64,000 bases of DNA. It comes from an uncultured Bifidobacteriaceae bacterium. Its GTDB lineage: Bacteria; Verrucomicrobiota; Verrucomicrobiia; Limisphaerales; UBA11358. How positions within the stretch are numbered: position 1 is the stretch's first letter; each line of letters opens with the position of its first letter. The notes beneath the pieces are model-generated. The model searched no databases, was not told where the DNA came from, and saw only the letters and a program-made list of their open reading frames with translations. Below are positions 19,920 through 30,147 of the stretch, in pieces. The translations under genes were made by a program, and so were the position numbers. The stretch is taken from positions 7 to 64,006 of the forward strand of contig CAYVGC010000002.1 in the NCBI GenBank assembly GCA_964449815.1, given 5' to 3'.

Positions 19920-21947
19920 ATGAAACGCCTTGCTTCAGTCCTGTTCGCAGCCTTGCTGGCCTCGACCACGTCCGCTTTCAGTGCCGAGTCAACGAATTCG
20001 GTGCTGACTTACGTTGACCTGGTTCAGCGCCTCACCGATCTTGAACATCTGGCCACGCTGCCGGTGCCGGGCGAAAAGACCGCGCAGTTTTCGAGCTATG
20101 ACCGCGCGAGCCGTTACGACGAACAAACTGGCAAATACGTCCACTGGGATGCGAACGGCGACAACGACGGCATCATCCGCAAGGAAGACGGCAAATCCGT
20201 GCTTGCGGAAATGGACGGCCCTGGCTGCCTCTGGCGCATCTGGTCCGCCGCACCGAAGCAGGGCCACGTCCGCATTTATCTCGACGGCGACACCAATCCT
20301 GCGGTGGATTTGCCGTTCGCGGACTATTTTTCCGGCAAAGAAGCTCCGTTCACGCGGCCCGCGATCGTCAACATCGTTTCCCAGGGCTGCAACAATTACA
20401 CGCCGATTCCGTTTCAAAAATCCTGCAAAATCGTCGCCGACGCGGATTGGGGCGCGTATTACCATTTCGGCTACACGACGTTTCCCAAAGGCACGCAGGT
20501 GCCGACCTTCAAGCGGGAATTGTCGCCGGCGGACAACGCCGGGCTCGACGAGGCGGATAAAATTTTAAGCCATTGCGGTCCGCGCGAATTTCCCAACGGC
20601 CAGCGCGCCAGCGTCGAGGGAATGCTCGCCGGTCACGGCAGTTCGGGAACCGAGCCGGACGGCGCGGGTGCGATCACTGGCATCCGCGTTCGCTTCGATC
20701 CGCCGCTCACGCCGGCTGACCGCGATCTGCTCCGCGAAATCTCGCTTCAGATTCAGTGGGATGGCGAAGGTTCGCCGTCGGTGTGGTCGCCGCTCGGCGA
20801 TTTTTTCGGCACCGCGCCGGGCGCGAACGTGTATCGCTCGCTGCCGTGCGGCTACACGGAGGACGGCTGGTTTTACGCGAACTGGTTCATGCCGTTCACC
20901 AACGGCGCGAAAATTCACTTCGTCAACGAAGGTTCGAACAACCACAAACTCAAATACGAAATCTACCGCCAGGAAATCAAAGGCGATCTTACGCGCTACG
21001 CCCGCTTCCACGCCAAGTGGCATCGCGACGAGTTTTTGCCGACGGAACCGGAGCGGCAGATTGACTGGCCGCTGCTCAAGACCACCGGCGCGGGACGTTT
21101 CGTCGGCGTGATGCTGCACGTTTGGAACCCGCGCGGCGGCTGGTGGGGCGAGGGCGACGAAAAATTTTTCGTGGACGGCGAAAAATTTCCCTCCACCTTC
21201 GGCACCGGTTCCGAGGATTATTTCGGCTATGCCTGGGGCAGTCCGGCGCTGTTTCAAAATGCCTTCCATAACCAGACCCACAACGACGGCGACAGCAAGG
21301 GCCACATCTCGGTCAACCGCTGGCACATCTCCGACCAGGTTCCGTTTGAAAAACAATTCGAGGGCGACATCGAAAAATATTTCCCGAATGAACGCCCGAC
21401 GCGCTACGCCGCGACGGTTTTCTGGTATCTCGCCCCCGACGGCGATGATCCGTATTCGCCCGTGCCAGTCGCGGAACGCACCAATTATTTCGCGGCACCG
21501 GCCGCCAGAAAAATTCCCGGTGTCATCGAAGGCGAGCAGTTGAAAATCCTTTCCCAGACCGGCGGCCATCCGCAGGAGCAGGACATGACCGGCTGGGGCG
21601 AGCAATGGAGCAATGACGCCCAGCTCTGGTGGACCGAGGCCAAGCCCGGCGACAAGCTGGAACTCGCGCTCCCGGTGGCCAAAGCCGGCAAATACCAGTT
21701 GCTCGCACAGCTTACCAAGGCCGTGGATTACGGCATCGTGCAGCTCTCGCTCGACGGCGAAAAACTGGGCGAGCCAATTGATCTTTTCCACGATGGCGTC
21801 ATCGCCACCGGCGAACTTGATCTGGGCGCACATGAACTTTCGGCGGGCGATCACACACTCGCGGTCGCAATCACCGGCGCAAATCCCGCTGCGGTGAAGA
21901 GTTTCATGTTCGGGCTGGATTACGTAAAGCTGGTGGAGGCGAAATAG
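19920..21947 (+). CDS. DUF2961 / glycoside hydrolase family 172-like protein with signal peptide and C-terminal beta-sandwich extension
   Basis: Signal peptide MKRLASVLFAALLASTTSAFSA, then GPGCLWRIWSAAP...IYLDG and the overall DUF2961 pattern. ATG 19920 is chosen. Confidence 0.75.
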   Translation: MKRLASVLFAALLASTTSAFSAESTNSVLTYVDLVQRLTDLEHLATLPVPGEKTAQFSSYDRASRYDEQTGKYVHWDANGDNDGIIRKEDGKSVLAEMDGPGCLWRIWSAAPKQGHVRIYLDGDTNPAVDLPFADYFSGKEAPFTRPAIVNIVSQGCNNYTPIPFQKSCKIVADADWGAYYHFGYTTFPKGTQVPTFKRELSPADNAGLDEADKILSHCGPREFPNGQRASVEGMLAGHGSSGTEPDGAGAITGIRVRFDPPLTPADRDLLREISLQIQWDGEGSPSVWSPLGDFFGTAPGANVYRSLPCGYTEDGWFYANWFMPFTNGAKIHFVNEGSNNHKLKYEIYRQEIKGDLTRYARFHAKWHRDEFLPTEPERQIDWPLLKTTGAGRFVGVMLHVWNPRGGWWGEGDEKFFVDGEKFPSTFGTGSEDYFGYAWGSPALFQNAFHNQTHNDGDSKGHISVNRWHISDQVPFEKQFEGDIEKYFPNERPTRYAATVFWYLAPDGDDPYSPVPVAERTNYFAAPAARKIPGVIEGEQLKILSQTGGHPQEQDMTGWGEQWSNDAQLWWTEAKPGDKLELALPVAKAGKYQLLAQLTKAVDYGIVQLSLDGEKLGEPIDLFHDGVIATGELDLGAHELSAGDHTLAVAITGANPAAVKSFMFGLDYVKLVEAK

Positions 21948-22288
21948 GCCGGGCTGGTGCCGTCATGGCCGCGCCGGTTGGAGCCTCTCTACGGCGCGCC
22001 GGAACCATCCCACCCCGCGTCCGAGCCGTTCGTTCCCCCGTCCGAGCGACTTGGACGTGCGTCTGGATGGCCTGGGCGCGCGTCCGGGTCGCTTGGACCT
22101 GCGTCCGAAGAGCGTCGTCTGGTCAAAAAAACGAGGAAAACCAGGAAAATTGACCCCAAACGCGGTTTCCAAGCCCAAAACAGCCCCGTGCCAGACGACC
22201 GTGGTCAAAAAACGACAGTTGGTGGTGGGACGACTCCCGCCGGCCGCCGAATCTGGCACCACCAAGACACCAAGACCAGGTTTTCGCG

Positions 22289-22333
22289 TCAAATTTCTTC
22301 CTTCATGTCTTGGTGCCTTTGTGGTTAAACTTT
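22289..22333 (+). repeat. 45-nt leader/intergenic element, copy B
   Basis: Ends 5 nt before the thrS N-fragment ATG. Matches copy A at 44 of 45 positions in my hand alignment. Confidence 0.9.
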
Positions 22334-22338
22334 CCCCC

Positions 22339-23340
22339 ATGTCCGCTGAACAAGAGAATCAACCGCCGCCCGCGCCGCTCAACCCGGAACGTAAAACTTT
22401 GGACGACCGCGCCAAGATGACCGAGCTGGAACGCATCCGGCATTCCGCCGCGCACGTCATGGCCACCGCCATCCTGAGGCTGTGGCCCGACGCGCAATTC
22501 GCCGCCGGGCCGCCGGTCGAAAATGGATTTTATTACGACGTGGACCTGAAGCACCGCATCTCGCCGGAGGATTTCCCCGCCATCGAGGCCGAGATGAAAA
22601 AGGAAATCAAGGCCAACCACACCTTCGAGAAAATCACCGTCACGCGCGAGCAGGCGCTCAAGGACGCGCAAAACGGCCGGCTGGCCGCGCTTGCCGAGCG
22701 GCCCGGCAGCCCCAGCAAGTTCAAGATTGGCAACCTCGAAGCCATTCCCGACGGCGAGCCGATCACCTATTTCAAGAGTGGTGATTTCGTGGACCTCTGC
22801 GCCGGGCCGCATGTGATGCGCACCGGCAACATCGGCGCGTTCAAGCTCACGAGCGTGGCCAGCGCATATTACAAGGGCGACGAGCGCAACCCGCAGCTCC
22901 AGCGCATCTACGGCACGGCGTTCAAGAACAAGACCCCGCTCGACGAGTATTTCAAGATGATCGAGGAGGCCAGGCGCCGCGACCATCGCAAGATTGGCGC
23001 GGAGATGGGGCTGTTCGCGATTGACACCGAATACGTCGGGCCGGGCCTGCCGCTCTGGCTGCCCAAAGGCACCGCCATCGTCGAGGAACTGGAAAAGCTG
23101 GCGAAGGAAACGGAATTCGCCGCCGGCTACGTGCGCGTGAAAACGCCGCACATCGCGCGGGAGAAAATGTATTTAACCTCCGGTCACTTGCCGGTGCTTT
23201 ACGCGGAGTCAATGTATCCGCCGATGAAAATGGATGAACATCGCGAGGAACGGGAAAAATTGGAAAGGCGCATCGCCGAACTGGAAAGGCAACTGCTGGA
23301 ATATGCAAAGAAAATTTCCGAACGCAAGTCCGGCGGCTGA
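22339..23340 (+). CDS. thrS: threonyl-tRNA synthetase, N-terminal fragment (editing-domain remnant plus first part of class II core)
   Basis: HSAAHVMATAIL (editing-domain HxxxH), RRDHRKIG, and VKTPHIAREKMYLTSGHLPVLYAESMYPPM aligning with E. coli [26 protein letters not shown]. It then has a 38-aa charged helical tail and a stop. ATG 22339 is chosen. Confidence 0.85.
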   Translation: MSAEQENQPPPAPLNPERKTLDDRAKMTELERIRHSAAHVMATAILRLWPDAQFAAGPPVENGFYYDVDLKHRISPEDFPAIEAEMKKEIKANHTFEKITVTREQALKDAQNGRLAALAERPGSPSKFKIGNLEAIPDGEPITYFKSGDFVDLCAGPHVMRTGNIGAFKLTSVASAYYKGDERNPQLQRIYGTAFKNKTPLDEYFKMIEEARRRDHRKIGAEMGLFAIDTEYVGPGLPLWLPKGTAIVEELEKLAKETEFAAGYVRVKTPHIAREKMYLTSGHLPVLYAESMYPPMKMDEHREEREKLERRIAELERQLLEYAKKISERKSGG

Positions 23341-23380
23341 TTTTTGGAATGGCTGATTCCCCAAAACCCGCTATATTGTT

Positions 23381-23794
23381 ATGAAAGTGAATCCAGACAT
23401 TCGATGGAAACAGCGGTTTGAGAATTACGAAAAAGCCTTGCTGCTGCTTCGTGAAGCGATGGCCGACATCGAAAATCTTTCCGACCTGGAAAAAGAAGGA
23501 GCCGTCCAACGATTTGAGTTCACGGTCGAACTGGCGTGGAAAACATTGAAAGATTATCTGGAAAACAGCGGAGTCGCGCTGGCTCAAATCACTCCCAAGA
23601 ACGTCGTGAAACAGGCGTTCAGCGCCAAAATCATCCGCGACGGCCAGTTGTGGATTGACATGCTCGACTGCCGCAATCTCATGTCGCACAACTACGACGA
23701 AAAAATTCTCAATCAGACCGTTCACAAAATGTCCGGGTTTTTGCCCGCGCTGAACGAGCTGCATGATTTTCTGAAAAAGCGGGGCGCGTTATGA
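23381..23794 (+). CDS. HEPN-domain toxin (HI0074-type nucleotidyltransferase substrate-binding protein)
   Basis: GAVQRFEFTVELAWKTLKDYL and the Rx4H motif RNLMSH. It overlaps the partner gene by ATGA. Confidence 0.85.
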   Translation: MKVNPDIRWKQRFENYEKALLLLREAMADIENLSDLEKEGAVQRFEFTVELAWKTLKDYLENSGVALAQITPKNVVKQAFSAKIIRDGQLWIDMLDCRNLMSHNYDEKILNQTVHKMSGFLPALNELHDFLKKRGAL

Positions 23795-24123
23795 ATTCCT
23801 TTGGACTGACTGATTCCGAACAGGAAATGATCCGCGCGGTTTTGCGTCGGCACGCTGAAGTGATGGAGACAAAAATTTTCGGCTCGCGCGCCAAAGGTAA
23901 TTTCCAGCCCAGTTCCGACATTGACCTCGCGCTTTGGGGAAACCTGTCCGTTTCGGCAATTGCCATGATTGCCGGCGAACTGGACGAATTACCGCTGCCC
24001 TACACGTTTGACGTGCAAGCCTACGATGCCATTCACCACCAGCCATTACGCGAACACATTGACCGGGTCGGGAAAATTTTCTACTCGCAAGTCGGCAGCG
24101 AACCGGTAATTGCCAAACGGTAA
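23791..24123 (+). CDS. MNT-type nucleotidyltransferase antitoxin
   Basis: GSRAKGNFQPSSDIDLAL is the minimal nucleotidyltransferase GS..D.D motif. Confidence 0.85.
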   Translation: MNSFGLTDSEQEMIRAVLRRHAEVMETKIFGSRAKGNFQPSSDIDLALWGNLSVSAIAMIAGELDELPLPYTFDVQAYDAIHHQPLREHIDRVGKIFYSQVGSEPVIAKR

Positions 24124-24390
24124 TTGCCGGATTCAAACTGCCGGTCGCCAGATTCAAATTGACGATTGCCGGATTGAATCTGCCGGTTGGGAAATGGCTT
24201 TCGTCGGTCAACTTATTGCTTCTGTCAGTTGCCGGATGACAATGTGCTGTCGAATTATGACCATGTGCGGTTGCCGGATGGCATCTGCCGGTCGCCAGAT
24301 GGCTTCGTGCTGTTGACTTTTGACCATGTGCGGTCGGTTTATGGCCGCTGTCGGTTGACTTTTCGCCATTGCCGGTCAAAGGACGCCTTT
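24105..24390. repeat. degenerate 21-bp tandem array, about 13 units
   Basis: Units in register from 24139: tgccggtcgccagattcaaat, tgacgattgccggattgaatc, tgccggttgggaaatggcttt, cgtcggtcaacttattgcttc, tgtcagttgccggatgacaat, gtgctgtcgaattatgaccat, gtgcggttgccggatggcatc, tgccggtcgccagatggcttc, gtgctgttgacttttgaccat, gtgcggtcggtttatggccgc, tgtcggttgacttttcgccat, tgccggtcaaaggacgccttt. Confidence 0.85.
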
Positions 24391-24513
24391 TTTCCAAGGG
24401 TTTATGCCGATGCGATTCCAAAAAAGCCCGAAATTATCAATGCCAGCCCTGCCGCCGCCCCTAAAATATGAAGTTGCGGCGTGCGGAAATGAATCCGCGC
24501 TCCGCAACTCAAA

Positions 24514-24897
24514 ATGAACACGAAACAACAAAACAAGCTGGCCATGTATCTGGCCGTCAAAGCTGTGCTCGATTCCAATAACTCCGTATGGCAATCGTTG
24601 CAGGCTTTTGCGGATGGATACACGGACTTCAGCGGTCATGTCACCCAAATCCAGACCTTGGGGCTTTCCCAAGTGACGGATTCCACCGGCATCGCGCAGG
24701 ACAAAAAAGCGTCCAAGGCGGCGATGGCAACGGCAGCGCAGCAAATCAGTGCGGCGGTTCACGCCTACGCTGTCAAAAACAAGAACAACACGCTGGCCAA
24801 CGAAACCGATTTTACCGTTTCCGATTTGACCGGCGAACGCGACGCGGATGCCATCAAGGATTGCAGGTATTGCGCGCAATTGTATGAAAGGTCGTAG
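24514..24897 (+). CDS. hypothetical protein, probably 3'-truncated
   Basis: 127-aa ORF. After about residue 117 (near 24864) it runs into the antisense of the SNF2 fragment, so the last ~10 codons look like read-through. Confidence 0.4.
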   Translation: MNTKQQNKLAMYLAVKAVLDSNNSVWQSLQAFADGYTDFSGHVTQIQTLGLSQVTDSTGIAQDKKASKAAMATAAQQISAAVHAYAVKNKNNTLANETDFTVSDLTGERDADAIKDCRYCAQLYERS

Positions 24898-25664
24898 TAA
24901 ATGGCGTGATGGCAGGTTTTGTGAAGCGAAATGGATTCGGCGCACGCACCGGGATTGGCAATCAACACGTCCAAGCCGCTTGCCGTGTCCTTGAATCGGT
25001 TAATCAACCGCTCCCGCGTCTCGCCCTGCTGAACCGATGTTTGCTCGACAGGGGTTTCGCCATAAAGCAATTCGCAATTCACCTTCAATTTTTGGAAATG
25101 TTTTTGGATGAGCTTCAGCGCGCCGATGAAATTGCACCACACCACCACTTTTTCGTTGCGGCCAAGAATTCGCGAAACGAGTCTTTCCAACTGCAAAACC
25201 TTTGCGGGCGTTTCTAGTTGATCGTAAGTGCGGATGATTTCATAAAGCTCGCTCGCCTTGGCAACATCTATGTCGCAATCATCGAGCGGCTTGGTTAACA
25301 GGCCAACATAGGCGCTACATTGGCGCAAACGCAGGATTCGCGCGCGACGCAGCCGCGTCAGCACTTCGGCGTTTTTTGAATAATCAAACTTCGCGTTATT
25401 TCGAATCCGCAGCGTGATCGCGTCATAAACAAACTGCTCATGCTCGTTCATCGGCGTGATGATTGGCGGATGGAAAACAGGCTGCGTCAAACCGAGGTCT
25501 GCTTTCGTCACGCGATAAAACATCGGGCCGACAGTGTGTTTGAGGATTTGCTGTGCGCTTCCAATGTCGCCTTTTTGTTCGGCCACTTGAATTCTGATTC
25601 GATTTTCTGCGCCGATGGGATCACTTGCGGGCCAAAGGAACTCAAAAAGGTTATTTTGGATCAA
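24858..25664 (-). pseudogene. SNF2-family helicase fragment, missing the N-terminal ATPase lobe and the extreme C-terminus
   Basis: LFEFLWP..., the helicase C-lobe KVVVWCNFIGALKLIQKHF...ELLYGETPVEQ...RFKD...VLIANPGACAESISLHKTCHHAIYYDLSYNCAQYLQS. Homology stops before the expected DRxHRxGQ motif. No Walker A/DExH region is present. Confidence 0.7.
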
Positions 25665-26518
25665 AAAAGCGTCTGGCGGTCCAGCTTTGCAAAAAGCTTC
25701 CGCCTCATTCTGCTTGGGTTGAGGCGTTTTGCGGCTCTGCCGCGCTGACGTTTGCCAAAAAACCAGCGCCCGTTGAAGTCATCAACGATCTCGACTGCGA
25801 AATCATAAATTTTTTCGAGCAACTCCGGGACAATGAAAAGCGGCTTTGTCGCGCAATCGCACTGACGCCCTACGCGCGGAAGGAATTAGACCTCGCCAGA
25901 AAACCGCAGCGGAAAGCGACCAAACTCGAACGCGCTCGGCGCTTTCTGGTTTCGTCCATGATGGCAATCAATGGAGTTTTCGGCAAAGAGCGCGGCGGCT
26001 TTTCCTATTCCGATTCGTATGTGCGCAGCGGGCGGGAAGCGCGCGTAAATCGGTGGTATAATCTTCCAAAACGAATTTCCAAATTCGTTGAGCGCTTGCG
26101 GGGTGTCCGCGTTGAAAACAAAGATGCCCGCAAGCTGCTCAAGCAATTTGCAGATAAGCCGGCGGCGCTCATTTATTTGGACCCACCGTATTTTGCGGAC
26201 AGAACAAACGGCTACAACCACGATGCAAACGACCTGAAATTCCACCGCGAGCTTTTGCGGCTGGCCAACCGCGCCCGCTGCATGATTTTCATCAGCGGAT
26301 ACCAAAATACGCTTTACCGGAAAATGCTGACCACAAAAAAAGGCTGGCACACCAAAACAATCAAGGCTACGACACGAGATTCATCCGGCAAGACCCATGA
26401 GCGAACGGAAGTTGTTTGGATGAACAAACATTTTTTGAAGGCGCAAAAGTCAGGAAAAATTCCCGTTCGACTCTCCAAAAGGGAAACAAAATTAAACAAG
26501 GTCAATCCGACTCGCTGA
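25625..26518 (+). CDS. Dam-like (D12 class) N6-adenine DNA methyltransferase
   Basis: YFGSKKRLA...WVEAFCGSAAL (SAM motif) and the catalytic DPPY (IYLDPPYF). There is no in-frame ATG. The only candidate starts are TTG 25625 and CTG 25607, after a stop at 25595. Confidence 0.75.
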   Translation: MRAKGTQKGYFGSKKRLAVQLCKKLPPHSAWVEAFCGSAALTFAKKPAPVEVINDLDCEIINFFEQLRDNEKRLCRAIALTPYARKELDLARKPQRKATKLERARRFLVSSMMAINGVFGKERGGFSYSDSYVRSGREARVNRWYNLPKRISKFVERLRGVRVENKDARKLLKQFADKPAALIYLDPPYFADRTNGYNHDANDLKFHRELLRLANRARCMIFISGYQNTLYRKMLTTKKGWHTKTIKATTRDSSGKTHERTEVVWMNKHFLKAQKSGKIPVRLSKRETKLNKVNPTR

Positions 26519-26538
26519 CTTTCTGCTCCTCACCCCGG

Positions 26539-26575
26539 CCCTCTCCTCGTTCGGCGAGGAGAGGGAGAATTATTT
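26539..26575 (+). terminator. hairpin (perfect 11-bp stem) plus T-rich tail downstream of the methylase gene
   Basis: ccctctcctcg-ttcgg-cgaggagaggg followed by agaattatttt. It could equally be a REP-like palindromic repeat. Confidence 0.45.
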
Positions 26576-26771
26576 TGTGGGACGATTTCCCAGGGTATTC
26601 GCTGCGCTCAAACCCTGGGCTGATTTCCGCAGAGCCTTCAGCGCAGTCGAAGCTCGGCCTGCCATTCAATTCGCGCGGATTCGTGGAATTCGTGTCGCGT
26701 CTTTGCGCCTCCGCGTCTTTGCGTTGAAAAATTGAATTTCTTTTGCGCGGCAGAACGGTATTTTGATTGCG

Positions 26772-26888
26772 ATGTCTGACCTCACGAAAGCCGGGCAGTT
26801 CAATCTGGTTGAAGACGCCGTCATTCAACGCAAAGGCGCGGAGTCGCGAAGGGCAGGCGCGGGCAAATATCCTTTGGTTTCAAACTGA
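26772..26888 (+). pseudogene. 38-codon ORF duplicating the first ~17 codons of the thrS C-fragment
   Basis: MSDLTKAGQFNLVEDAV... compared with MHELTKTEQFTLVEDAV... at 27690. I count 41 identities in the first 50 nt by hand. Similarity is lost afterwards and a stop follows at 26886. Confidence 0.6.
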
Positions 26889-26907
26889 AAAGAAGTATTT
26901 TAACGGC

Positions 26908-27165
26908 ATGAAAGCGATGCAAATAGAATATCCTGAATCTTGGACGGCTTCGGCAGGTTCAAGTCCCGAACGCTTTGAAAACGAGGCGCGCATGGCGCTG
27001 GCGATGAAGCTGTTTGAGATGGGGCGGCTGACCAGCGGCCAGGCGGCGCAACTGGCCGGAGTTTCCCGCATGGCTTTTCTTTTCAACTGTCCGCAATGGA
27101 ACGTGCCCGCCGTGAATTGGGACGCCGCCGAGCTTGCCGCCGAGTTCAAGCCGATCCCCTCGTGA
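26908..27165 (+). CDS. UPF0175-family antitoxin
   Basis: ALAMKLFEMGRLTSGQAAQLAGVSRMAFL is the UPF0175 pattern. Its stop overlaps the GTG start of the PIN partner. Confidence 0.8.
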   Translation: MKAMQIEYPESWTASAGSSPERFENEARMALAMKLFEMGRLTSGQAAQLAGVSRMAFLFNCPQWNVPAVNWDAAELAAEFKPIPS

Positions 27166-27650
27166 GCCGGATTATCTGCAATTCAGGGCCGTTGATTGCG
27201 CTCGGCATCCTTGCCCGGCTGGACATCCTGAAATCCCTGTTTGACGAGGTGCTCGTTCCCGAAGCCGTTCAGAAGGAAATCGAGCAGGGCGGAATAAAAT
27301 TATCGGGCCTGGAGGATTTCCGGCGCGCAAATTGGATTCGGATTGTGGCGCTCAAGGAAAAGCGCGACGAACTGCTGGAGTCGCTGCTGGACATCGGCGA
27401 AGCGGCGGTCATCAGCCTTGCGCGCGAGCAAAAGGCGTTGCTGGTGCTGATTGACGAACGCAAGGCGCGCAAAGTCGCACGCGATATTTACGGCCTGCAA
27501 CCCATCGGCACGGCGCGCATTCTGGTCGAGGCCAAACGGAAGAATTTACTGCCGGGCATCGCCTCTCAATTTCAAAAACTCCGGCAGGAAGGTTATTGGA
27601 TTCACGATACAATTGTCGAAACCGCCTTGCGTGAAGCCGGAGAGATTTGA
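27162..27650 (+). CDS. DUF3368-type PIN-like nuclease toxin
   Basis: ICNSGPLIALGILARLDILKSLFDEVLVPEAVQKEI is typical of DUF3368/PIN partners of UPF0175. GTG 27162 is chosen. Confidence 0.8.
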   Translation: MSRIICNSGPLIALGILARLDILKSLFDEVLVPEAVQKEIEQGGIKLSGLEDFRRANWIRIVALKEKRDELLESLLDIGEAAVISLAREQKALLVLIDERKARKVARDIYGLQPIGTARILVEAKRKNLLPGIASQFQKLRQEGYWIHDTIVETALREAGEI

Positions 27651-27689
27651 ATTTTCTTCGTGGTTCACAGGCGTTAAGATTTTTCCTCA

Positions 27690-28799
27690 ATGCACGAACT
27701 CACGAAAACCGAACAGTTCACTTTGGTTGAAGACGCCGTTAAAACCGGCATTGCGCCGGCGGAAATTGCCGCCGCGTTCAACGAGTTGACCGCGCTGCGC
27801 CAGGAATTGAAAAAACTTGGCGAGCCGGAAAGTTATTACCTCAAAGCGATGAACTGCCCGCATCATCACCGCATTTTTGCGGCGGAACCGCGCAGTTACC
27901 GCGATCTGCCGTTGCGGCTGGCCGAATACGGCACCTGCTACCGCTACGAGCAGTCGGGCGAATTGTTCGGCCTCATGCGCGTCCGCTCGCTCAACATGAA
28001 CGACGCGCACATCTATTGCACGCCGGAGCAGTTCGCCGCCGAGTTCAACGCCGTCAACGAAATGTATCTGAAGTATTTCAAGATTTTCGGCATCGAGAAA
28101 TACGTCATGCGCTTCAGCACGCACGACCCGTCGCGCCTGACCGGCGACAACGCCAAGTTCGTCAACGAGCCGGAATTGTGGAAGCAGACGGAAGACCTGG
28201 TCCGCAAGGTCTTGATTGATTCGAAGATTCCCTACGTGGAGGTGCCGAACGAGGCGGCGTTTTACGGGCCGAAGATTGACGTGCAGGTCTGGAGCGTCAT
28301 CGGCCGCGAATTCACGCTGGCGACCAACCAGGTGGACTTCGCCGTGCCGCGCCGGTTCGGCCTGGTCTATCGCGACAAGGACAACACGGACAAGACGCCG
28401 CTGTGCATCCATCGCGCGCCGCTCGGCACGCACGAGCGGTTCATCGGCTTCCTCATCGAGCATTACGCCGGCAACTTCCCGCTCTGGCTCGCGCCGGAGC
28501 AGGTGCGCGTGATGACCATCGGCGAGGAGGAGCCGCTGGTGAATTACGCCAAGGCCATCGTGAATGAATTGCGCGCGAATTTCGTCCGCTGCGAATCGGA
28601 TTTTTCGTCGAACAAAATCAACGGGAAAATTCAGGAAGCGGAGCAGGCGAAAGTCCACACGATGCTCGTCATCGGCGGCCGCGACATGGACGCCGGGAAT
28701 GTTTCCGTCCGCCTGCACGGCAAGGGCAACATCGGCGCGAAGCCGAAGGGCGAAGTGGTTGCGGAGATTCTGGCGAAGATCAAAGAGCGGCGCATCTGA
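27690..28799 (+). CDS. thrS: threonyl-tRNA synthetase, C-terminal fragment (zinc site, motifs 2 and 3, anticodon-binding domain)
   Basis: A 46-aa helical head is followed by ESYYLKAMNCPHHHRIF...RSYRDLPLRLAEYGTCYRYEQSGEL...RVRSLNMNDAHIYC...FYGPKIDV...IHRAPLGTHERFIGFLIEHYAGNFPLWLAP. This is colinear with E. coli ThrRS from YCIKPMNCPGH onward. Confidence 0.85.
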   Translation: MHELTKTEQFTLVEDAVKTGIAPAEIAAAFNELTALRQELKKLGEPESYYLKAMNCPHHHRIFAAEPRSYRDLPLRLAEYGTCYRYEQSGELFGLMRVRSLNMNDAHIYCTPEQFAAEFNAVNEMYLKYFKIFGIEKYVMRFSTHDPSRLTGDNAKFVNEPELWKQTEDLVRKVLIDSKIPYVEVPNEAAFYGPKIDVQVWSVIGREFTLATNQVDFAVPRRFGLVYRDKDNTDKTPLCIHRAPLGTHERFIGFLIEHYAGNFPLWLAPEQVRVMTIGEEEPLVNYAKAIVNELRANFVRCESDFSSNKINGKIQEAEQAKVHTMLVIGGRDMDAGNVSVRLHGKGNIGAKPKGEVVAEILAKIKERRI

Positions 28800-28851
28800 A
28801 CGGCGCTGTTTTCCGGCGCTGCTGCGGATGAAGAGTTGAAATAAATTGCGG

Positions 28852-30147
28852 ATGTCCATGCGTGTGAAGCTTGCCTTTCAATTTTTCGCCGGGCTGCTGC
28901 TCGCAACCTCGTCGCCGGCGCAGGATTTTTTGAGCGGCGCGGACCTTTCGCTGTTGCAGTTCTTCGAGGACCGCGGCATCAGCTACCAGTCCAACGGCGT
29001 GACGCAGGACGCCATCGTCCTGCTGAAAAATCGTGGCATCAACTGCGTGCGGCTGCGGCTGTTCACCAGCAGCGCGGCGCAGGCGCAGGCTGATCCCTAC
29101 GATTACACCAACAACCTTGCCTACACGCTGCCGCTGGCGGCGCGCGTGAAAAGCGCGGGGTTGAAGCTGCTGCTGGATTATCATTTCTCGGACACCTGGG
29201 CGGACCCGGCGCATCAGGCGAAACCGGCGGCGTGGGCGAATCTGTCCTCCGCACAGTTGCCGGCACAGCTTCGCAGTTATTGCAGCAACACCATCGCCGC
29301 GCTCGTCGCGGCGGGCGCGGCGCCGGATTACGTCCAAATCGGCAACGAGATTACCAGCGGCCTGCTGTGGACGGACGGAGAAGTGGGCGGCGCGTATGAA
29401 AATACCAATCAATGGTCGCAGCTCGGCCAGTTGATGAAAGCCGCGATTCAAGGCGTGAAGGACGCAGCGGGCACGACGCCGCCAAAATTCATCGTCCACC
29501 TGGATCGTGGCGGCGACTGGGTGACGACGCAGTGGTTTTTCGATTCGCTCAACGCGCAGTCCGTTCCTTTCGACATTATCGGGCAGAGCTATTATCCGTT
29601 CTGGCAAGGCAGCCTGGATGATTTGCGGAACTGCCTGACGAACACGGTGCAGCGCTACAACAAACCCGTCATCGTGGCGGAAACCGGTTTTCCGTTTGCC
29701 AATTCCACAAACCTGGCTGGCTTTCCCGCGACGACCAATGGACAGGTGAATTTCGTCGGCGCGCTGGCGCAGATTGTGAAAGGACTGCCGGGCCAGAAGG
29801 GCCTGGGAATTTTTTGGTGGGGCGCGGAATACCAGACTTTGAACGGCTACAACCTCGCTGGGTTCGACCAGCGTTCACTTTTCGGTCCGGGCGGCAACAT
29901 GCTGCCGGCGGCGGACGCGCTGGGACAATTGTCCGCGCCCGTGGTGATGAGGGCGCGGCGGACGAACAGCAGCCTGCAGTTGTGCTGGCCGTTGAGCGGC
30001 GCGGGCATGGCGCTGCAGACTGCCACGAATCTGGCATCCGCAAACTGGCAGTCCGACACCGGGCCGGTTCAAAACACGAACGCCGTTTTCAGCGTTCGCC
30101 TGCCGCTGGATGCCGGCGCGCAATTTTACCGGCTGAAATCAAATTGA
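28852..30147 (+). CDS. arabinogalactan endo-beta-1,4-galactanase (GH53) with C-terminal extra domain
   Basis: Signal peptide, then GADLSLLQFFEDRGISY...NCVRLRLF...LDYHFSDTWADP...VQIGNEITSGLLW, which is the GH53 pattern. Confidence 0.8.
   Translation: MSMRVKLAFQFFAGLLLATSSPAQDFLSGADLSLLQFFEDRGISYQSNGVTQDAIVLLKNRGINCVRLRLFTSSAAQAQADPYDYTNNLAYTLPLAARVKSAGLKLLLDYHFSDTWADPAHQAKPAAWANLSSAQLPAQLRSYCSNTIAALVAAGAAPDYVQIGNEITSGLLWTDGEVGGAYENTNQWSQLGQLMKAAIQGVKDAAGTTPPKFIVHLDRGGDWVTTQWFFDSLNAQSVPFDIIGQSYYPFWQGSLDDLRNCLTNTVQRYNKPVIVAETGFPFANSTNLAGFPATTNGQVNFVGALAQIVKGLPGQKGLGIFWWGAEYQTLNGYNLAGFDQRSLFGPGGNMLPAADALGQLSAPVVMRARRTNSSLQLCWPLSGAGMALQTATNLASANWQSDTGPVQNTNAVFSVRLPLDAGAQFYRLKSN

Follow-up and report, generated by a model that had tools for sequence, protein, structure and literature searches.

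A duplicated start of the thrS C-fragment around a toxin–antitoxin pair in an uncultured Verrucomicrobiota, read as a scar of homology-anchored recombination

The window analyzed here, a 64,000-nt stretch from an uncultured bacterium deposited under Bifidobacteriaceae and placed by GTDB in the Verrucomicrobiota (Limisphaerales; assembly GCA_964449815.1, contig CAYVGC010000002.1, positions 7 to 64,006), carries a ThrRS gene, thrS, split into an N-fragment (thrN) and a C-fragment (thrC). The start of thrC is present twice, upstream (copy 1) and downstream (copy 2) of a predicted toxin–antitoxin (TA) pair. We propose, with a probability of about 0.55, that copy 1 is the scar of a homology-anchored recombination of chromosomal fragments, for example the single crossover of a circular fragment, and not of integrase-mediated integration. 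Indeed, duplications at such loci end at variable points, no recombinase was found in or near the loci examined, the incoming allele is an ordinary one and one joint displays microhomology, which together argue for fragment recombination anchored in conserved thrS. An earlier note on this DNA, made from the sequence alone, had described the repeat and interpreted it as an island-like, site-specific insertion of the TA cassette; the description is upheld below and the mode of insertion revised.

A repeat search of the window aligned copy 1 (26778-26821) with copy 2 (27696-27739) at 86% over 44 nt and, with the start codons included, 26772-26821 and 27690-27739 agree at 41 of 50 bases (41/51 in a 51-nt comparison), as found by hand in the earlier note. 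At their right ends, the two copies share 16 identical bases, TGGTTGAAGACGCCGT, a conserved coding sequence within longer imperfect homology. The duplication is wider than 50 nt: using a search profile built from five leader-plus-head copies, strong matches were obtained at copies 1 and 2 only (E 2.6e-24 and 9e-23, the next best being 0.005) and the homology was extended to ~105 nt (26719-26822 versus 27631-27739), consisting of a weakly similar leader of ~50 nt and the first 17 codons. Regarding their coding content, the copies encode the peptides MSDLTKAGQFNLVEDAV and MHELTKTEQFTLVEDAV, respectively. The list of open reading frames (ORFs) agrees with the earlier description of copy 1 as a dead end of 38 codons (26772-26888) and of copy 2 as the real start of the 369-aa thrC frame (27690-28799). 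A degenerate 41-mer retrieved copies 1 and 2 as its only two sites in the window (0 expected from 100 shuffles) and, in the whole 4.39-Mb assembly, the same two sites and no others. With two genome copies only, the 50-mer and its leader are therefore not a dispersed repeat, dispersal being limited to the 28-nt arms that flank them.

These arms form an inverted repeat (26701-26728 and 26824-26851, 89% complementary) by which copy 1 and its leader are exactly enclosed. Each arm is a member of a dispersed family, GCGTCTTTGCG...TTGAA/TTAAA, of which further copies were found in the same genome and, at many different loci, in ~100 congeners (query positions 1-35 and 124-153). As ends of a transposon or miniature inverted-repeat transposable element they were considered and not retained, the inverted repeat flanking copy 1 and not the TA cassette. 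A target duplication of the transposase type was likewise rejected, an imperfect duplication of 50-105 nt not fitting such an event.

The origin of the two copies was examined among 149 genomes of the genus (G000 designates the genome of the window, other G numbers its relatives and L numbers extracted loci). Copy 2 is an ordinary thrC start, identical at 50 of 51 bases to the working start of G156 and at 48 of 51 to that of G158, with G168 also orthologous; this orthology includes the preceding 27 nt (27663-27689). What had been taken for a replacement copy borne by the element is hence simply the normal thrC start elsewhere. The leader of copy 1 is a different allele (type I), also used at working thrC starts, namely by G071 and, as a more divergent variant, by G020 and G029. 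In G071, a leader and head of the copy-1 type continue directly into thrC, and the empty site that the earlier note had suggested looking for thus exists. Moreover, the head of copy 1 agrees with the G158 and G107 heads at 44-45 of 51 bases, against 41 of 51 for copy 2. In the closest relatives by thrC, namely G156, G158, G168 and G178 (91-97% nucleotide identity), relic, spacer and TA pair are all missing. The comparison with G071 and G156 supports a duplication of the target, with one copy surviving as a displaced, non-functional 5' end and the gene making use of the other.

The relic head and the 73-nt spacer behind it are found again in G109, G005, G136 and G051. In G109, the spacer and the UPF0175/PIN pair are as here and copy 1 has decayed to ATG TCT GCC TAA, with two deletions besides; the relic heads of G136 and G051 have lost their ATG and contain indels; in G005, the relic ORF is open over 36 codons and a 1-nt indel relative to G000 alters its tail. 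It can be concluded from these lesions that the relic is not kept as a protein, and from the G000/G005 indel that the spacer is not read as one. The relic leader in G136 and G051, unlike the decayed coding part, is still close to the functional leader of G029 and G020. Head and spacer are joined at the identical nucleotide (GCCGTC followed by ATTCAACGC) in all five genomes (G000, G109, G005, G136 and G051), and divergence jumps at this joint: the relic heads of G000 and G005 agree at 32 of 51 bases, the adjoining spacers are 82-88% identical and each head resembles working heads of other lineages (44-45/51 for G000 and 47/51 for G005). In G005, G136 and G051, the TA pair behind the same joint is a different one (Pfam DUF433 and DUF5615), the relic thus occurring beside another cassette.

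Regarding the TA genes of the window, a UPF0175 antitoxin (26908-27165; PF03683, E 7e-19) overlaps by 1 nt a PIN-like DUF3368 toxin (27165-27650; PF11848, E 3.5e-9), and these small adjacent genes are predicted from their family matches to form a type II TA pair. Nine other genomes possess copies of the pair, whose similarity to the window is confined to 26895-27653. In eight of these genomes, the copy is found elsewhere than at thrS and the 73-nt spacer is missing; in the ninth, G024, the copy is located just downstream of thrS. Since homology ends at 26895 and 27653 and the spacer is shared across different TA pairs, the TA genes are an exchangeable unit and the spacer belongs to the locus. 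The borders first proposed for the cassette (26822-27689) are accordingly too wide, the sequence following copy 1 being part of the locus.

We infer the following order of events. At an earlier locus, the leader and head of copy 1 would have been the working thrC start, as they still are in G071. A fragment from a relative may then have brought in the spacer and a TA cassette, immediately followed by a thrC start of its own (the copy-2 allele seen in G156). The homology would have been supplied by conserved thrC, while the other joint, after codon 17 of the resident head, would have been illegitimate. The likely route is the single crossover of a circularized fragment or a one-sided homologous event, without dedicated recombinase; the displaced leader and 17 codons would have been stranded upstream and the incoming copy would have become the start of the gene. 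The TA genes would later have been exchanged on one platform, giving UPF0175/PIN in G000 and G109 and DUF433/DUF5615 in G005, G136 and G051. In Escherichia coli, when a circular molecule bearing a portion of the target was integrated by a single crossover, part of this target was duplicated rather than deleted; homologous events at one side only, the second joint being illegitimate, are known as well (PMC3240628).

Several observations weigh against this scenario. Five genomes possess one exact joint with two very different relic heads, and a joint in G051 (d1) is only 1-2 nt away, which fits a preferred cutting site too; subsequent homologous exchange reaching as far as the joint could account for its being shared, although some room is left for such a site. 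In addition, only ~16 nt are identical between the two copies today, which is short for a RecA-driven crossover, so that later divergence or a different donor is required. Sliding identity against G156, G071, G158 and G168 did not disclose any mosaic breakpoint within thrC. Finally, no promoter was detected in the leaders by a simple sigma-70 consensus scan, and the promoter role discussed below rests on conservation and gene layout.

Gene-end duplications are recurrent at these loci and their joints vary. Relic heads end at the ATG (L118, in which a leader copy is cut exactly there), at codon 8 (G006), at codon 16-17 (G051 d1 and the G000 group) and at codon 21 (G107). In the G051 d1 joint, head codon 16 is fused to thrN residue 258 across a shared 7-nt microhomology, GCCGCCG. 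On the other side of the gap, a second thrN tail copy follows MNT in G017 and G109, while G051 has three displaced tail copies starting at residues 258, 292 and 276, each with its own stop and its own downstream DNA; overall, displaced tails start at residues 258, 276, 291 and 292. In G006, one tail copy and two truncated leader copies (A/B) are found around a PRiA4_ORF3 gene. The three tails of G051 and the copies in G006 support growth of the insert by serial additions at a hotspot, as the earlier note had envisaged. Its remark that the left border has no matching repeat is valid for the genome of the window, but not for relatives, which do have one. Taken over all loci, head, tail and thrS 3' pieces of many lengths bracket cassettes in G000, G003, G005, G006, G017, G051, G109 and L118.

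Two further observations were made on such displaced pieces. In G107 (L089, C54, 8030-8140), an orphan leader of the copy-2 type with 21 head codons lies just upstream of an intact thrS with a different loop insertion. In G003 (C9:114-132 kb; L038, L039), with up to eight fragments, and in G028:C58, G027:C208, G039:C141 and G029, series of thrS 3' fragments are interspersed between unrelated genes (such as large secreted proteins and a LysR regulator), with no integrase; all fragments end at the natural stop and start at residues 184-274. A self-BLAST of the window's own genome for gene-end duplications gave 326 local repeat pairs, mostly paralogous domains and the integron.

Among the alternatives, site-specific integration has to be weighed first. 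A small TA element would have inserted at a core within thrC codons 12-17 by means of a recombinase encoded elsewhere, carrying a replacement head and leaving the two copies as attL and attR. The 16 identical bases at the right ends of both copies (TGGTTGAAGACGCCGT), the single joint with two head types in five genomes, the second joint 1-2 nt away and the empty site of G071 are in line with this scheme, and the genome contains more than 20 tyrosine recombinases plus an integron elsewhere. However, in agreement with the earlier note, Pfam detected no recombinase among all ORFs of the insert; PF00589 had no match on the thrS contig of this genome; and no tyrosine integrase was found within 30 kb of thrS in G000, G003, G027, G028 and G051, the nearest being 30 kb off (G051), serine recombinases and transposases not having been searched genome-wide. 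Moreover, the arm supposedly borne by the element matches the normal chromosomal allele of G156, and the TA unit, where it occurs at other places, does not include the left-end spacer. An integrase island would be expected to use one crossover point; here, relic joints were also located at the ATG, at codon 8 and at codon 21, and the tail copies begin at four distinct residues. We consequently regard this explanation as improbable.

The integron of this genome is a chromosomal cassette array on two contigs (C59:18016-25627 and C117:126-3779), with at least 15 and 8 attC sites, respectively. These sites are ~100 nt long (GCCTAAC...GTTAGGC), 85-98% alike and spaced by 300-1600 nt. They are unrelated in sequence to the thrS locus, which further speaks against site-specific integration, and an integron cassette was excluded as such, the borders of the thrS cassette being devoid of attC (RYYYAAC ... 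GTTRRRY boxes).

A local origin of the duplication is, in our opinion, no more plausible. The 5' region of thrC would have been duplicated in tandem by unequal crossing-over at microhomology, the TA genes would have been inserted between the copies and these would then have diverged, with no foreign head involved. The G051 joint between head codon 16 and thrN residue 258 at GCCGCCG is as expected from the duplication of the whole inter-fragment segment, and the match between the heads of copies 1 and 2 (41/51) is better than that between copy 1 and its positional equivalent in G005 (32/51). Nevertheless, the two leaders are different alleles, matching the working leaders of G071 and G156, respectively, and copy 1 is closer to the G158 and G107 heads (44-45/51) than to copy 2. 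Relic and spacer are, moreover, also found in distant congeners whose thrC protein is only ~79% identical.

Somewhat less credit is given to the idea that the break point of split thrS is a dedicated platform for cassette capture, in which the thrC leader with its first codons and the thrN tail would be preferred recombination sites, with a favored cut near GCCGT, served by a trans-acting recombinase or a structure-prone repeat. If true, defense and TA cargo would be stacked inside an essential gene, in an operon with its second half and protected from loss. A function of copy 1 itself, as a leader peptide or upstream ORF, or as a decoy of the first helix of the C-fragment, regulating the TA pair or ThrRS assembly, is very hard to sustain: the ORF is open over 38 codons here and 36 in G005 and lies directly before the TA genes and thrC, but it meets a stop at codon 4 in G109, its ATG is lost and its frame broken by indels in G136 and G051 and its tail is changed by 1 nt between G000 and G005. 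Moreover, no structured RNA was identified by Rfam at E <=1 in 21500-29500, apart from a chance microRNA match. Finally, an assembly artefact stitching two strain variants of the thrC start in tandem hardly deserves consideration, since the succession of relic, spacer, TA pair and thrC recurs in four independently assembled genomes, even though this metagenome-assembled genome comprises 171 contigs with 4.3% estimated contamination.

Returning to homology-anchored recombination as the preferred explanation, its product has a bearing on how thrC is expressed today. The leader of thrC itself is truncated here and absent in G109, G005, G136 and G051; thrC starts 2 nt after the toxin stop in G109 and 10 nt after it in G005, G136 and G051. 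A terminator-like hairpin precedes copy 1, and no further terminator-like site was found on the + strand between 26565 and 28584. From this arrangement, it is most likely that the TA genes and thrC are transcribed together from the relic leader or from the end of the spacer. The relic leader was kept while the coding part decays, probably because it now drives these genes.

One leader layout is common to thrN, to TA copies elsewhere and to both repeats: a AATTTCTT-like box, ~20 nt, a TA..TTT box and an ATG within 6-10 nt (window 22270-22340, 26729-26771 and 27651-27689; also L105 and L107, upstream of UPF0175). Such a layout points to one promoter type, whose transcripts would have a very short 5' leader or none at all. 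For the "leader-repeat family" that the earlier note placed before each copy, it suggests a shared promoter architecture rather than a mobile repeat.

The features of the locus are collected in Table 1.

Table 1. Positions of the duplicated thrC start, its surroundings and the two thrS fragments in the window
Feature	Position	Strand	Basis
thrS N-fragment (thrN), helical tail ...MDEHREEREKLERRIAELERQLLEYAKKISERKSGG then stop	22339..23340	+	ORF list; Pfam tRNA_SAD; sole thrS N-part in genome; same tail and stop in ~20 congeners
Terminator-like hairpin (12-bp stem and T-run) after methylase gene, upstream of copy 1	26539..26565	+	Terminator scan
Left arm of 28-nt inverted repeat, dispersed GCGTCTTTGCG family	26701..26728	+	Repeat search; copies in genome and ~100 congeners
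Copy 1 leader (type I allele), promoter-like, TATTTTG 7 nt before ATG	26719..26771	+	Profile match; likeness to functional leaders of G071, G020 and G029; intact beside decayed relics
Copy 1, relic first 17 thrC codons, heading a 38-codon dead-end ORF to 26888	26772..26821	+	Repeat and ORF data; decayed equivalents in G109, G136 and G051
Locus-resident spacer, 73 nt, starting with right inverted-repeat arm (26824-26851)	26822..26894	+	82-88% shared with G109, G005, G136 and G051 before two different TA pairs
TA unit, UPF0175 antitoxin and PIN-like DUF3368 toxin	26895..27653	+	Pfam; homology borders in 9 other genomes
Copy 2 leader, truncated (type III allele)	27654..27689	+	Only 27663-27689 matches G156; upstream TTGCCT box of G156 missing
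Copy 2, first 17 codons of functional thrS C-fragment	27690..27739	+	50/51 with G156, 48/51 with G158; continuous with 369-aa ORF
thrS C-fragment (thrC), 369 aa, tRNA-synt_2b and anticodon-binding domain	27690..28799	+	ORF list; Pfam

No other thrS is present in this genome, and the cut in the gene lies between the conserved blocks SMFPPM and YYLKAMNCP. The same split occurs in ~20 of the 149 genus genomes with unrelated cargo in the gap, the split-type thrN tail having the form MDEHRE..RIAELE..YAKK followed by a stop and the thrC head the form ..EEF..VE.AVK.G.AP. The cargo comprises, in the window, HEPN/MNT, a decayed helicase fragment with a methylase, and UPF0175/PIN; in G017, PRiA4_ORF3, HEPN/MNT and other genes; in G020, a methylase, an AccI-type endonuclease and a controller protein; and in G178, a compact methylase pair. 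The two halves are far apart in G136, G050 and G029. In G158 (L101, C2:2972000-2981000), they are convergent and ~4.5 kb apart with PRiA4_ORF3 between them, and must therefore be expressed separately there. In G109 (L085, C12, ~1150-1175 of the oriented copy), the HEPN gene has been precisely deleted, its first six codons being fused to the start of MNT, which is left partnerless.

In the ThrRS of this order, the interval between SMFPPM and YYLKAMNCP holds an insertion of 10 to ~100 residues which cannot be aligned even where the flanks of congeners are 75-94% identical (window 23209-23340 and 27690-27850; loci L005-L032). Intact thrS genes with a recognizably related insertion were found in G027 and in several Chthoniobacterales records. 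Split-type heads and tails are also present in records labeled as other orders of Verrucomicrobiota (L128 and L129, Terrimicrobiaceae; L119, L118, L152 and L126), which implies that the split allele or the insertion domain is widespread or has been transferred. Searching the literature on split ThrRS in Verrucomicrobia returned nothing relevant.

As read here, the repeat records a familiar type of event at an unusual location, and the split, hypervariable ThrRS with cargo in its gap is the more remarkable feature. As a dated footprint, the repeat would illustrate how small TA and restriction cassettes enter genomes without a mobility gene of their own, riding on fragments of conserved essential genes. 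Wiring one half of a split aminoacyl-tRNA synthetase behind a TA pair could, moreover, couple the synthesis of an essential enzyme to TA autoregulation and render loss of the cassette difficult. The ~20 congeners with the same split and different cargo thus provide a ready-made series of natural loci in which the turnover of cassettes through homologous and illegitimate recombination can be followed in uncultured Verrucomicrobiota.

Several known systems can be compared with this locus. One is Campbell-type single-crossover integration of circular DNA carrying a portion of the target, together with homology-facilitated illegitimate recombination (HFIR), in which the foreign DNA is flanked by directly repeated segments of the target, variable in length, one end is homologous and the other illegitimate or microhomologous, and a dedicated recombinase is unnecessary; target duplications of 109-950 bp arose by this route in E. 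coli (PMC3240628). Here, in contrast, the process is deduced from natural genomes rather than directly witnessed, its anchor is an essential gene that was already in two pieces and the duplicate is short (~105 nt) and now 60-86% identical. Islands and prophages integrated at the ends of genes or tRNA genes similarly displace the original end beyond the insert while a substitute end keeps the gene working, and their serial insertions leave arrays of displaced ends comparable to the tails of G051 or the thrS 3' fragments of G003; the thrS loci differ from them in having neither an integrase nearby nor a fixed core, an ordinary allele as replacement and cassettes of only 0.5-2 kb. Integron cassettes are also small, promoter-poor, often TA pairs and stacked behind a common upstream platform, but the cassettes at thrS have no attC and their boundaries are thrS-derived. 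Finally, defense and TA hotspots between core genes, a concept already described (PMC10121019), likewise gather unrelated restriction-modification, TA and methylase cargo at one position with conserved flanks; the thrS hotspot is distinguished from these by its location within one essential gene, between its halves, and not between two genes.

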